This document shows, in pieces, positions 2,033 to 51,976 of a DNA stretch of 64,000 nucleotides (position 1 is its first letter; every line of letters begins with the position of its first letter). The stretch is taken from the NCBI GenBank assembly GCA_947630185.1, contig CANRGT010000009.1:4996-68995 (forward strand), read 5' to 3'. The DNA comes from an uncultured Clostridia bacterium. GTDB taxonomy: Bacteria > Bacillota > Clostridia > TANB77 > CAG-508. Below the pieces are notes generated by a model, which was given only the letters and a program-made list of their open reading frames with translations, searched no databases and was not told where the DNA came from. The position numbers and the translations under genes were made by a program.

Positions 2033-2307
2033 CCTCTCTCTTATTTTCTTATCTATTTTATTGTTTATCTTATTTCTATCTTTGCTTTTATTTTCTTATA
2101 TATCAATTATTTCTATTTTACTCTATCTTTTTTATATCTTCTCTTTTATTTTATTCGTAGCACTGTTCTTTAGTTCCATAACTTTTGTTGACCCAATATG
2201 CCCTATCACAACTATCTCAAAAATGGGTGAAAATTTAGTCAAAAAAAAACACCATTAAGGCGCAATAGTATAAATATATTATTTTTTCAAAAATTTGTTC
2301 TGTTCGC

Positions 2308-2336
2308 TTGTATTTTATTTAATAATGTTGTATATT
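2308..2336 (+). promoter_or_regulatory. sigma-70-like promoter for the small-peptide transcript
   Basis: TTGTAT, 17-nt spacer, TATATT. The predicted start is next to CATAGGAAATG (about 2343). Confidence 0.45.
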
Positions 2337-2411
2337 GGTAAACATAGGAAATGATGATAAGCAGATGTGGTTTTGCCACCAATTATACGAATTATCGTAG
2401 GAGAGGTGGTG

Positions 2412-2531
2412 ATGTTTATGGTTAAAGTGATACTATTTTTTATAATATCCTTTATGTTATCTTTAACATTAAACGTTGCCTTGGCTACAGTTCTGTATAA
2501 GAACTGGGTTGATAAGCAACTACATAAATAA
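2412..2531 (+). CDS. 39-aa hydrophobic peptide, candidate type I toxin
   Basis: SD AGGAGAGG (2399-2406) lies 5 nt before the ATG. Peptide is MFMVKVILFFIISFMLSLTLNVALATVLYKNWVDKQLHK, one TM helix plus a polar/basic tail. Below the ORF-track length cutoff. Confidence 0.5.
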   Translation: MFMVKVILFFIISFMLSLTLNVALATVLYKNWVDKQLHK

Positions 2532-2620
2532 AAAAAGCTCACATCTGTAAATTTGACGATTTAGATGTGAGTTTTTATATCTATTTCGGCAAAACCACGT
2601 TTGTGGAATTGTCATTTCCT
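2530..2620 (-). ncRNA. about 90-nt sRNA convergent with the candidate toxin gene (candidate antitoxin; copy B of the AUAGGAAAUG module)
   Basis: Perfect promoter immediately upstream. Contains a CCACAAACGUGG hairpin and alternative pairing UAGAU/AUCUA, then a terminator with a U-run. Confidence 0.5.
2537..2576. terminator. bidirectional intrinsic terminator shared by the peptide mRNA (+) and the convergent sRNA (-)
   Basis: Stem CTCACATCT (2538-2546) pairs with AGATGTGAG (2563-2571). It is flanked by A7 upstream and T5 downstream. Confidence 0.65.
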
Positions 2621-2626
2621 ATATTT

Positions 2627-2655
2627 ATTATACTTGAGATTTAAAAAAATGTCAA
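2627..2655 (-). promoter_or_regulatory. consensus sigma-70 promoter for sRNA B
   Basis: On the minus strand: TTGACA (2655-2650), 17-nt spacer, TATAAT (2632-2627). Confidence 0.65.
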
Positions 2656-2732
2656 ATAAATTTTGGAGTGAAAGAATTATTTTTATCAAACTTCTAATAA
2701 TTTATAATCAATTTTAATTTTTATAATTATAT

Positions 2733-50966: not shown

Positions 50967-50995
50967 TTGAAATATGTTTAAAAATAAAGTATAAT
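50967..50995 (+). promoter_or_regulatory. promoter of the candidate toxin mRNA
   Basis: TTGAAA, 17-nt spacer, TATAAT. Confidence 0.55.
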
Positions 50996-51045
50996 AAACA
51001 CATCCTTTTCATTAAGGAAATCTTTTTGAAAGGGAGGTGAGTAAT

Positions 51046-51135
51046 TTGTCATCTTACGAATTAATTTGGCGTCTAATTGTTTTATTATTACTTAGTAATG
51101 ATAATCAAGAAGATAGTCAAAAAACTCATGATTAG
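51046..51135 (+). CDS. 29-aa hydrophobic peptide, candidate type I toxin (Fst/holin-like-toxin style)
   Basis: GGGAGG lies 8 nt before TTG 51046. Peptide is MSSYELIWRLIVLLLLSNDNQEDSQKTHD. The 5' UTR segment CCUUUUC can pair with GAAAGGG and would sequester the SD. Confidence 0.5.
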   Translation: MSSYELIWRLIVLLLLSNDNQEDSQKTHD

Positions 51136-51148
51136 TGCAAATCTAATC

Positions 51149-51178
51149 AAAGCGGTCTGGTCAACCGCTTTATTTTTT
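51149..51178 (+). terminator. intrinsic terminator of the candidate toxin mRNA
   Basis: AAGCGGT-ctggtca-ACCGCTT followed by TATTTTTT. Confidence 0.7.
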
Positions 51179-51180
51179 GC

Positions 51181-51252
51181 AAAAAAAATGAGATATGTGG
51201 TCAACATATCTCGAGTAATTGTCATCTTACAAACAACTCTCTTGCTTAAGCT
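51181..51252 (-). ncRNA. about 70-nt convergent sRNA, candidate antitoxin
   Basis: It has its own promoter and terminator (GAGAUAUG-uugacca-CAUAUCUC plus AU8). It contains UUUGUAAGAUGAC-AAUUACUC, which is complementary (21 bp including one G-U, with one bulge) to GAGUAAUUUGUCAUCUUACGAA spanning the toxin start codon. Confidence 0.55.
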
Positions 51253-51258
51253 AAATAT

Positions 51259-51287
51259 AGTATACTACTTTTTTTATTATATGTCAA
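51259..51287 (-). promoter_or_regulatory. promoter of the candidate antitoxin sRNA
   Basis: Minus strand TTGACA (51287-51282), 17-nt spacer, TATACT (51264-51259). Confidence 0.55.
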
Positions 51288-51338: not shown

Positions 51339-51367
51339 TTGACAATTAAAATAATTCATAGTAAAAT
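51339..51367 (+). promoter_or_regulatory. promoter of sRNA A
   Basis: TTGACA, 17-nt spacer, TAAAAT. Confidence 0.6.
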
Positions 51368-51371
51368 AAGA

Positions 51372-51457
51372 ATAGGAAATGGAAGCCACAAAAGTGGTTC
51401 GCCAGATTTAGATAAAAAAACACATCTAAAATGGGCAAATTACAGATGTGTTTTTTT
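51372..51457 (+). ncRNA. about 85-nt sRNA or orphan leader (copy A of the AUAGGAAAUG module)
   Basis: AUAGGAAAUGGAAGCCACAAAAGUGGUUCGCCAGAUUUAGAUAAAAAAACACAUCUAAAAUGGGCAAAUUACAGAUGUG plus U7. Collinear with copy B (2620->2530). No ORF lies downstream because the next gene is convergent. Confidence 0.5.
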
Positions 51458-51463
51458 ATTATA

Positions 51464-51976
51464 TTAGAATATATTTACAATTTTAAGTGCACTTTTTTCT
51501 TTAATATGTTTTAAAATAAATGCACAATTATCTAAGCTTTCTACTGCAGTTTGATAATCCTTTGTTTCAATATTTGCCTTTAATTTAGTAAGCTCTGTTT
51601 TAACTTTTTCTAGTTCATTGTGTTCAATATAATATGACATTGTTTCATCTTTTTCTTCCCACAAATTTTCTATATCTTCCATCTTTTTTGTGCTTTCTTC
51701 TTGCTCTTTATTTACATCTAAACTTTCTTTTTTGCTTTCATCTGTTTTAGAATCTTCATTTTGATTTTCATTCTGTTTTTCATCTGATTTACTATTTTGT
51801 TCCTCATTTATTTTAGAACTTTCTTCACTTTCATTTAATTTGTAAATTTTTTCTCTTAATTCACTTAAATTTTTCGACATTGCTTCTACTGCACTATTTG
51901 TGTTATTTTGTGTAATAATGTTTGCTATAATAATAACTACTATTACAACAAATATGATAATTATTTGTTTATACAT
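51464..51976 (-). CDS. DUF4363-like membrane-anchored protein
   Basis: 170 aa with an N-terminal TM and an acidic low-complexity linker. It overlaps the stop of the upstream DUF421 gene by one base (the first base of its start codon, 51976, is the last base of that stop), the usual DUF421/DUF4363 pairing. Confidence 0.55.
   Translation of the reverse strand: MYKQIIIIFVVIVVIIIANIITQNNTNSAVEAMSKNLSELREKIYKLNESEESSKINEEQNSKSDEKQNENQNEDSKTDESKKESLDVNKEQEESTKKMEDIENLWEEKDETMSYYIEHNELEKVKTELTKLKANIETKDYQTAVESLDNCAFILKHIKEKSALKIVNIF

Follow-up and report, generated by a model that had tools for sequence, protein, structure and literature searches.

A solitary small RNA gene of uncultured gut Clostridia as the probable remnant of a module from an undescribed family akin to type I toxin-antitoxins

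Toxin-antitoxin (TA) systems of type I are standard examples of antisense regulation but, to our knowledge, almost all of their known families come from cultured Proteobacteria, Bacilli and Clostridioides. In the fold-back inhibition of hok/sok and the 5'-3' interaction of aapA1/IsoA1, pairing of the leader with the 3' region closes the toxin mRNA, with its Shine-Dalgarno (SD) sequence sequestered, while the 5' domain of SprA1AS pairs with the ribosome-binding region of its toxin. Antitoxin genes orphaned by toxin loss are documented mostly for protein antitoxins. For the comparison below we use the features of par from Enterococcus faecalis pAD1, which comprises RNA I/Fst and RNA II (PMC7472228) and has par-like counterparts on chromosomes, and of SprA1/SprA1AS from Staphylococcus aureus, whose antisense RNA overlaps just the 3' end of the toxin mRNA and is thought to make its functional contact outside that overlap (T1TAdb; PMC8594479). 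Here we analyse a stretch of 64,000 nucleotides (the window) from an uncultured Clostridia bacterium (contig CANRGT010000009.1, positions 4,996 to 68,995), and in particular a small RNA (sRNA) gene on its forward strand, copy A, which resembles both a second sRNA gene (copy B) and the leader of the mRNA (T) of a 39-residue peptide elsewhere in the window. We believe it likely that copy A is a solitary antitoxin-type sRNA gene, the remnant of a complete two-gene module belonging to an undescribed type I TA-like family of uncultured gut Clostridia.

Copy A and the family to which it belongs

The complete module consists of the mRNA of a hydrophobic peptide of 35-40 amino acids (aa), facing an sRNA of about 90 nucleotides (nt) across one bidirectional terminator. 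Copy A has the sRNA half of this module and lies between dapB and a convergent open reading frame (ORF) of 170 aa. Its parts are given below; all transcript starts and ends in this work are taken from promoter and terminator geometry.

51339-51367, + strand: promoter of sRNA copy A, TTGACA-17-TAAAAT, scoring 11/12 in the promoter scan
51372-51457, + strand: sRNA copy A, solitary and of the antitoxin type (E 5e-26 against the family model in nhmmer)
51372-51381, + strand: 5' tail, ATAGGAAATG
51384-51389 with 51394-51399, + strand: hairpin
51400-51412, + strand: variable middle
51413-51457, + strand: A-run, terminator and T-run

Both hairpins are formed in the minimum free energy (MFE) structure of copy A (-24.4 kcal/mol). 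As the earlier note on this DNA had seen from the sequence, no partner gene is present: there is no convergent toxin gene on the 3' side of copy A, where the minus-strand 170-aa ORF ends at 51464. That a complete module once stood here is recorded in the sister genomes, which, like all genomes compared, are metagenome bins. In G040, whose flanks are 97-99% identical, a complete module occupies the same site at dapB; its sRNA shares with copy A the promoter and the 5' part up to GTGGTT, after which a different terminator type follows, and its toxin gene encodes 37 aa behind the leader ATAGGAAATGAGAATAAGCAGAGTGTGTTGCCACC. G042 carries a collapsed remnant at the site (ATAGGAAATGGAAGCCAC joined to ATCTGTTTATTCTCATTTCCTAT), in which the 5' end of the sRNA is fused to the reverse complement of the 5' end of a toxin leader, with the junction at the common CCAC. 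The copy A promoter is 95-99% identical in these two genomes. In most other members of the genus, such as G035, dapB directly adjoins the 170-aa ORF with nothing between.

The family is broad. The earlier note had described three copies and proposed a genome-wide nhmmer search, which finds seven sRNA copies and at least five toxin leaders in this genome alone. Full modules lie on contigs C9, C33, C12, C1 and C6, and a second solitary sRNA copy, with a toxin-gene remnant, on C1. BLAST with copy A recovers a third sRNA on C33 (80% identity), which faces a 36-aa hydrophobic ORF whose toxin leader begins ATAGGAAATGA..ATAAGCAGATGTGGTTTGCCAC. Beyond the genome, the module is matched in 48 of the 51 genomes of the genus. 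Among 77 genomes sampled from the family, 55 have the sRNA, and 20 of the order's 32 genera have it. Scanning named genomes with the pattern returned uncultured gut Clostridia metagenome-assembled genomes (MAGs) from rabbit, goat, deer, chicken and human, plus scattered chance matches elsewhere; the plausible matches in named records were all gut Clostridia MAGs, the carriers including Clostridium sp. CAG:440 and Candidatus Scatovivens. Searched with cmscan under the gathering threshold or with E up to 10, Rfam returned chance-level matches only and no match to an antitoxin model, in agreement with the earlier note, which could assign the RNA to no riboswitch class.

The peptides fall into two related groups, MFMVKVILFF...NVAL...LYKNWV and MIE/MVE...TIIAFALII...SK, and the pattern of codon-position entropy (0.235, 0.099 and 0.343 at positions 1, 2 and 3 in 30 distinct coding sequences) points to coding selection on them. 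Proline is present in none of 75 distinct plausible peptides of 33-42 aa, and a Pfam and NCBIfam scan of four peptides at E up to 10 gave no relevant match.

The earlier note had proposed to look for the module beside small hydrophobic ORFs in relatives; a convergent toxin leader lies within 520 nt of 92 of the 114 distinct sRNA copies. A further 20 copies have sufficient flanking DNA and no convergent toxin leader, which makes about 20 of 112 copies solitary yet intact. Many solitary copies retain a 3' fragment of the toxin ORF; others, like copy A, retain nothing. Measured by the family model, solitary copies do no worse than paired ones (median 76 versus 78 bits, p 0.6), and 18 of 22 of them have an intact promoter, versus 90 of 92 paired copies. 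No intact toxin gene was found without an sRNA nearby, except at one locus split by an insertion. Since solitary sRNAs are common and solitary toxins absent, the asymmetry is the one predicted by a toxin-antitoxin pair. This asymmetry, the strong sRNA promoter set against the weak toxin promoter, and the sequestered SD sequence described below lend indirect support to a type I TA function. The earlier note had allowed that an antitoxin family might account for the architecture; this appears to be so in kind, the family being type I TA-like, but the family itself is undescribed.

Other observations concern how modules vary and come apart. At L115 (2204-2330) the toxin leader runs directly into the terminator, its ORF deleted, with the facing sRNA gene intact; this is a third route of toxin loss, besides 5' truncation and collapse. 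The insertion-split locus is L070 (1380-1700 and 3118-3221; Clostridia MAG RGIG9176), where an insert of about 1.5 kb, its ends inverted (GTCCAA-TTTTGGG...), lies precisely within the bidirectional terminator's loop and separates an intact toxin gene from the sRNA gene just beyond. On C5 (about 16700-16560, minus strand) a murE-like gene (MKQYTLKEYISALEKENLIE...) is preceded by a promoter of the toxin type (TGTTCGCTTG...TATAGT) and by the initial 18 nt of a toxin leader (ATAGGAAATGAGAATAAA); beyond these the sequence diverges. The stretch has the appearance of a degraded module, with transcription from its promoter now directed into a housekeeping gene. A distant subfamily is represented in the same genome at C6:1400-1900 and C1:97457-97595, with a 50-aa peptide (MLLDQVFLIIIYILFIELVMVTVVAAILFVALAYTIRKLDNKK...) and with the 5' modules of both arms changed together (GAUGAGC...GUGGCGUGUC); its C1 copy is solitary, beside a 5'-truncated toxin remnant. 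Finally, sRNA copies in other genera of the family (G122, G227, G231, G172 and G056) are 92-94% identical to copy B, which suggests either very strong constraint or recent horizontal spread, although our sense that this is above expectation for intergenic DNA is an impression.

Directly upstream of copy A lies a further cassette, given here as context only.

50967-51287, both strands: unrelated par-like peptide/sRNA cassette, with promoters at 50967-50995 (+) and 51287-51259 (-) and a 29-aa ORF

Between 50967 and 51457, two unrelated peptide/antisense-RNA systems stand back to back downstream of dapB. Neither is present at this spot in most relatives, and the spot seems to collect modules of this kind.

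The shared 5' module and the pairing of the two RNAs

The complete module within the window, formed by T and copy B, is composed as follows.

2308-2336 (feature 2308-2343), + strand: weak promoter of the toxin mRNA T, TTGTAT-17-TATATT, read from the sequence, with GTTCTGTTCGC just upstream
2344-2411, + strand: toxin mRNA leader
2344-2354, + strand: shared 5' tail of the toxin leader
2361-2374, + strand: leader segment L, GCAGATGTGGTTTT, which pairs with the terminator 5' arm
2375-2380, + strand: anti-SD of the toxin leader, GCCACC
2405-2410, + strand: SD of the toxin, GGTGGT
2412-2531, + strand: ORF of the hydrophobic 39-aa peptide MFMVKVILFFIISFMLSLTLNVALATVLYKNWVDKQLHK, the presumed toxin
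2531-2577, both strands: bidirectional terminator of T and B (A-run 2531-2537, hairpin 2538-2572, T-run 2573-2577)
2531-2655, - strand: sRNA copy B including its promoter, which scores 12/12 (RNA about 2622 to 2531)
2655-2650 and 2632-2627, - strand: -35 box and -10 box of the copy B promoter, TTGACA-17-TATAAT

Copies A and B are collinear over their full length, from the -35 box to the T-run, as had been claimed (BLAST 76% identity, E 4e-12), and both RNAs end in a CACATCT...AGATGTG hairpin flanked by A- and T-runs. B and T do form an inverted repeat around the peptide gene. The 17-nt spacer that the earlier note gave for all three promoters is present in each; those of A and B are near-consensus and consensus, but the T promoter is weak and was not flagged by the consensus promoter scan. 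Promoters of the T type also precede the toxin leaders on C12 and C1 and the murE-like gene on C5. Upstream of the toxin -35 box, a GTTC-N4-GAAC palindrome (gttctaaagaac, gttttttagaac) occurs at L171 1283-1360 (G042) and on the minus strand at L184 120-60 (G040), and the corresponding element in the window, at 2296-2307, is GTTCTGTTCGC. This element could be a candidate repressor-binding site for the toxin promoter; GTTCTYT resembles SinR-type sites.

The pattern ATAGGAAATG-N8-18-GTGGTT matches at 2344-2372 (+), 2622-2593 (-) and 51372-51399 (+), nowhere else in the 64 kb, and not at all in 100 dinucleotide shuffles, so that one common module in the three units A, B and T is confirmed. Indeed, what had been described as a promoter-plus-AUAGGAAAUG module is a family-wide trait: both RNAs start with AUAGGAAAUGA, with GUGGUUU(U)GCC about 25 nt downstream of it, and all toxin leaders and all sRNAs start (A)UAG(G/A)AAAUGA and carry GUGGUUU(U)GCC or its subfamily variant. 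The middles of the two arms differ in all loci, with GCAGAU in T versus CCACAAAC in the sRNA. The 5' modules are more similar within a locus (19.4) than between loci (15.5; 0 of 5000 permutations). Rare variants appear in both arms of one locus (AAAAGA on C1, AAAUAAG in L060), wherever a toxin leader has A at position 5 (ten cases) the facing sRNA has A there as well, and the subfamily changes GUUACCU, GCUACCA and ACGGUUUUGCC are present in both arms. Across 30 closely related modules, conservation is highest at the two 5' ends (0.93-0.99) and lowest in the middle segment (0.68), column identity outside the middle being 0.9-0.99. Small ORFs starting from the AUG inside AUAGGAAAUGA were considered and rejected, as the frame is not conserved across indels.

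The toxin leader is complementary to the terminator of its own mRNA. Leader nt ~18-31 (GCAGAUGUGGUUUU) can pair with the A-run and the 5' arm of the toxin terminator (AAAAGCUCACAUCUGU); in the window, segment L does so with -18 kcal/mol. At least eight leader/terminator types co-vary, among them AGCAGAGUGUGUU with AAACCAUUCUGCU, UAGUGGAACGGUUUU with UAAACCAUUCUACU, AAAGCAAGUGUGUUG with CAACACAUCUUUGCUUU and UGCAGUGUGAGUGCU with AGCACCACAUAUGCU. The mean leader:arm energy is -15.1 kcal/mol for cognate pairs versus -7.3 kcal/mol for the same leaders with 241 unrelated terminators of the same genome, and energies of -14 or below are reached by 81% of the cognates versus 2.5% of the controls; these duplex energies ignore competing intramolecular structure. 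Cognate leader:arm pairs beat non-cognate ones in 5000 of 5000 permutations. As permutation tests ignore relatedness, we place most weight on the independent co-varying types and on the control with unrelated terminators. Column-wise covariation of the leader/terminator helix was abandoned because MAFFT aligns the terminator types in different registers.

The leader:arm helix is part of the MFE structure of 68 of 77 nascent toxin mRNAs that lack the terminator 3' arm, where it stacks on the anti-SD:SD helix, whereas in the full-length mRNA the terminator wins in 65 of 77. The SD window is on average 81% paired in 77 MFE folds, sequestered as GCCACC:GGUGGU, which is also the pairing in the MFE structure of the leader in the window, or as CCUCC:GGAGG in another subfamily. 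The leader segment is a copy of the terminator 3' arm and U-tract, which is also the 3' end of the sRNA (identity test 0/5000). For the sRNA, GUGGUUUUGCC as a mimic of its own terminator gave a null result (-6.6 versus -6.4 kcal/mol; identity test 3329/5000). On the T strand, the terminator 5' arm CACATCTGT is better conserved than its pairing partner. The sRNA 3' arm ACAGAUGUG is likewise more conserved than the sRNA 5' arm, which fits constraint on the toxin strand.

The two RNAs can meet at two places. At their 3' ends, copy B and the toxin mRNA match as perfect complements over the last ~50 nt (-73 kcal/mol). A second contact is offered by the 5' hairpin of the sRNA, which we tested by named pairs, the remaining structure being tested by energy: 84.8% of cells are paired, against 25-48% in the slide controls, and five of the seven pairs are changed on both sides. 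RNAalifold predicted no structure for the alignment of 84 sRNA sequences, because the heterogeneous terminators misalign. The 3' strand of the hairpin is the shared GUGGUUU, and since the toxin leader carries the same sequence, the 5' strand of the hairpin is complementary to the toxin leader (-10.5 to -16 kcal/mol), with the cognate pair winning in all but 1 of 5000 permutations. In one subfamily, this pairing includes the anti-SD CCUCC. The earlier description of the 5' ends as similar and not complementary is therefore correct as to similarity, but the hairpin 5' strand of the sRNA does complement the leader. Recurrent G-U-rich matches of 8-12 bp between the sRNA middle and the toxin start region were not adopted, as the segment is the least conserved and the cognate preference small.

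Having no toxin of its own, copy A could act in trans on the paralogous toxin mRNAs of C9 and C33. Its 3' half is predicted to pair with their 3' ends at -33 and -39 kcal/mol, respectively, versus -71 to -75 kcal/mol for cognate pairs. The 3' arm and U-tail of copy A bind the A-run and terminator arm of the C33 toxin at -18.9 kcal/mol, while the C33 mRNA's own leader reaches -15.2 kcal/mol. The terminator loops of copy A and of the C9 and C33 toxins are not complementary, and fast kissing contacts are not predicted.

Proposed mechanism and rival explanations

For the complete module we propose the following. A weak promoter would give T, the mRNA of a membrane peptide of 35-40 aa, in whose leader the anti-SD (GCCACC or CCUCC) would sequester the ribosome-binding site. 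From the opposite strand, a consensus promoter would give the ~90-nt sRNA, ending at the same bidirectional terminator and leaving the 3' ends of both RNAs fully complementary. Leader nt ~18-31 of T would pair with the A-run and 5' arm of its own terminator in a 5'-3' fold-back stacked on the anti-SD:SD helix, and this fold-back is predicted to dominate nascent RNA in which the 3' arm has yet to be transcribed, and likewise 3'-trimmed RNA. As the leader segment is a copy of the sRNA 3' end, the sRNA and the leader would compete for one site on T. The 5' strand of the sRNA hairpin would swap onto the T leader in a second contact, which would explain the co-evolution within loci of positions ~14-36. 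Pairing at both sites would keep T untranslated, exposed to degradation, or both. The analysis shows the family itself, its anatomy, the relic status of copy A and the covariation; transcription, toxicity, antitoxin action and the order of these RNA events are what we infer. Taken as a whole, this would be a control logic undescribed for type I TA systems, in which the terminator 3' arm, its copy in the leader and the antitoxin 3' end compete for the terminator 5' arm, the winner setting termination or read-through and a closed or open mRNA, with the hairpin strand as a second lock and the solitary sRNAs as guards in trans. We put this logic forward tentatively and think it rather unlikely to be right in full.

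Several points weigh against this proposal or against our view of copy A. The strand swap leaves the identity of the first 11 nt of both RNAs unexplained. The margin between cognate and non-cognate hairpin-leader pairs is just 0.6 kcal/mol, in permutations that ignore relatedness, and in the subfamily in which the sRNA pairs with the anti-SD, that contact, taken alone, should open the SD sequence. Between the sRNA 5' domain and the toxin's translation start region, no pairing specific to the locus is seen (cognate -9.7 versus non-cognate -10.3 kcal/mol), and a classic par-like translation block is therefore absent. As for copy A itself, its start, end and expression are what we infer, and the 3' half of its orthologue in G040 differs from it; its history therefore includes a replacement.

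The rival explanations differ in what they take copy A, or the shared 5' sequences, to be. The earlier note had favoured a riboswitch- or attenuator-like RNA that switches between an antiterminator, AUUUAGAU:AUCUAAA, and the terminator. The alternative helix does exist in A and can be drawn in B, and the middle segment prefers its own terminator 5' arm by about 0.5 kcal/mol (2/2000 permutations), but in copy A the helix amounts to only -2.8 kcal/mol versus -14.4 kcal/mol for the terminator. Over 74 sRNAs the alternative fold stands at -2.7 versus -1.7 kcal/mol with a shuffled middle (z -0.8) and terminators at -12.5 kcal/mol, and it reaches -5 kcal/mol or below in just 12% of copies. Given that every other part of the module is better conserved than the middle segment, that no gene lies downstream of copy A, that Rfam holds no match and that the same RNA stands opposite a peptide gene in 92 loci, this explanation is largely refuted and we give it next to no credence. 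The note's other suggestion, a small mobile cassette with inverted ends of about 38 bp, resembling a miniature inverted-repeat transposable element (MITE), would make the shared 5' sequences sites of DNA recombination. It would suit the different sites that modules occupy in different genomes, the many relics, the identity of up to 94% between sRNA copies across genera and the collapsed palindromic remnant in G042. However, the homology between copies continues for about 25-60 bp outside the repeat at either end, taking in the two promoters (window 2282-2666), the start of the repeat coincides with the inferred +1 of each RNA and not with the ends of a unit, and the arm middles differ systematically in all loci. 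No transposase gene or target duplication was seen, though no systematic search was made, plasmid and phage collections hold no copy of the module, and no clean pair of filled and empty sites was found, nor did the cysE locus, compared with G042, provide one. We consider a MITE-like origin very unlikely. It is also improbable, in our view, that copy A is no longer an antitoxin but a trans-acting sRNA for unrelated targets or a silent fossil: it has no cognate toxin and its loop is unlike the loops of the toxin terminators that remain, but its promoter, hairpin and terminator are all intact and of the kind usual in the family, and its 3' arm and U-tail outbid the C33 leader for the C33 toxin arm.

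The identity of the first ~11 nt, which the strand swap does not cover, invites explanations of its own. That this segment and its G/A-rich tail are shared because one host factor acts on a single-stranded 5' end (a 5'-end-dependent RNase, Hfq or the 30S subunit as a 5' stabiliser) is possible, if doubtful. The 11-mer is conserved as a sequence and not as mere complementarity, order-wide and in solitary copies, and it is unpaired in most predicted folds. Its UAG(G/A)AA is complementary to the tail UUUCUA at the 3' end of 16S ribosomal RNA (rRNA), both common variants, G5 and A5, pairing with U, and the 16S 3' end of one family member reads CACCTCCTTTCTAAGG; this rRNA pairing comprises just 6 bp in one genome, the sole family member whose rRNA end is assembled, and is speculation. 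A factor serving all loci would not lead one to expect rare variants common to both arms of a single locus, such as AAAAGA and AAATAAG, and in sRNA genes the motif lies 3 nt nearer the -10 box than it does in toxin genes, so that the two 5' ends probably differ by about 2 nt. Alternatively, the leader:arm helix might be an antiterminator through which T reads into the sRNA gene, the read-through RNA closing as a panhandle, with the same happening to sRNA read-through and the shared 5' module serving this pairing in cis. The helix is indeed the MFE structure of most nascent toxin RNAs before the 3' arm, and covariation for 5'-end identity is equivalent to complementarity between the 5' end and a read-through 3' end. 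Yet the terminators have long stems with U-tracts of 5-7 in both directions, the 5' module is conserved as a sequence and does not drift like a pair, single-arm variants are often tolerated at positions 1-3, and solitary sRNAs retain the module without a partner arm; a panhandle therefore seems unlikely to us. Short-patch gene conversion is a further possibility for the shared first 11 nt.

Comparison with known systems

Abundant among gut Clostridia of an uncultured order, the family has a par-like layout, with inverted repeats in place of the defining direct ones. As in par, convergent promoters serve a short mRNA for a hydrophobic peptide and a small RNA with a common bidirectional intrinsic terminator, an intramolecular leader helix sequesters the SD sequence, the sRNA and the mRNA have a second contact, here a predicted one, outside their 3' overlap, and the system is present in multiple copies in low-GC Firmicutes. 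In par, however, direct repeats (DRa and DRb) make RNA II complementary to the toxin start, whereas here the repeats are inverted and the 5' sequences are the same. The peptide carries no Fst motif, and the four peptides scanned match no Pfam or NCBIfam family, the Fst models included; Fst-type peptides combine a hydrophobic helix bearing PXXXG with a charged tail, and proline is found in none of the 75 peptides. Nor does the sRNA match RNA II in Rfam. A further difference from par is that the leader is paired with its own terminator, at the 5' arm. Two traits of the family are unusual: 5' modules that are inverted and co-evolve, and a leader copying the 3' end of the antitoxin.

SprA1/SprA1AS shares the position of the overlap, the sRNA meeting the toxin mRNA at its 3' end, outside the ORF, with no relation in sequence. 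Unlike SprA1AS, the 5' strand of the sRNA here matches the leader upstream of, or at, the anti-SD.

The solitary sRNAs resemble orphan antitoxins in that they remain intact after the toxin has been truncated or deleted, with toxin fragments beside many of them, and they account for about one sixth of the sRNA copies, across many genomes. If the proposed mechanism is true, these many intact solitary copies would allow nature itself to be asked whether protection against related toxins is what preserves RNA antitoxins. In terms of annotation, the family accounts for highly conserved intergenic blocks in these MAGs that have carried no annotation.

The logic proposed here resembles that of hok and aapA1, where the leader likewise pairs with the 3' region of the mRNA; here this pairing is supported by covariation, and the logic is the same without homology. 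Those systems are Gram-negative, and in both hok/sok and aapA1/IsoA1 it is the mRNA's 5' part to which the antisense RNA binds. Here, unlike in hok and aapA1, the 3' partner of the leader is an arm of the terminator hairpin that is also the predicted target of the antitoxin. If the proposed mechanism is true, the family would have a different way of coupling termination, mRNA folding and antisense binding.

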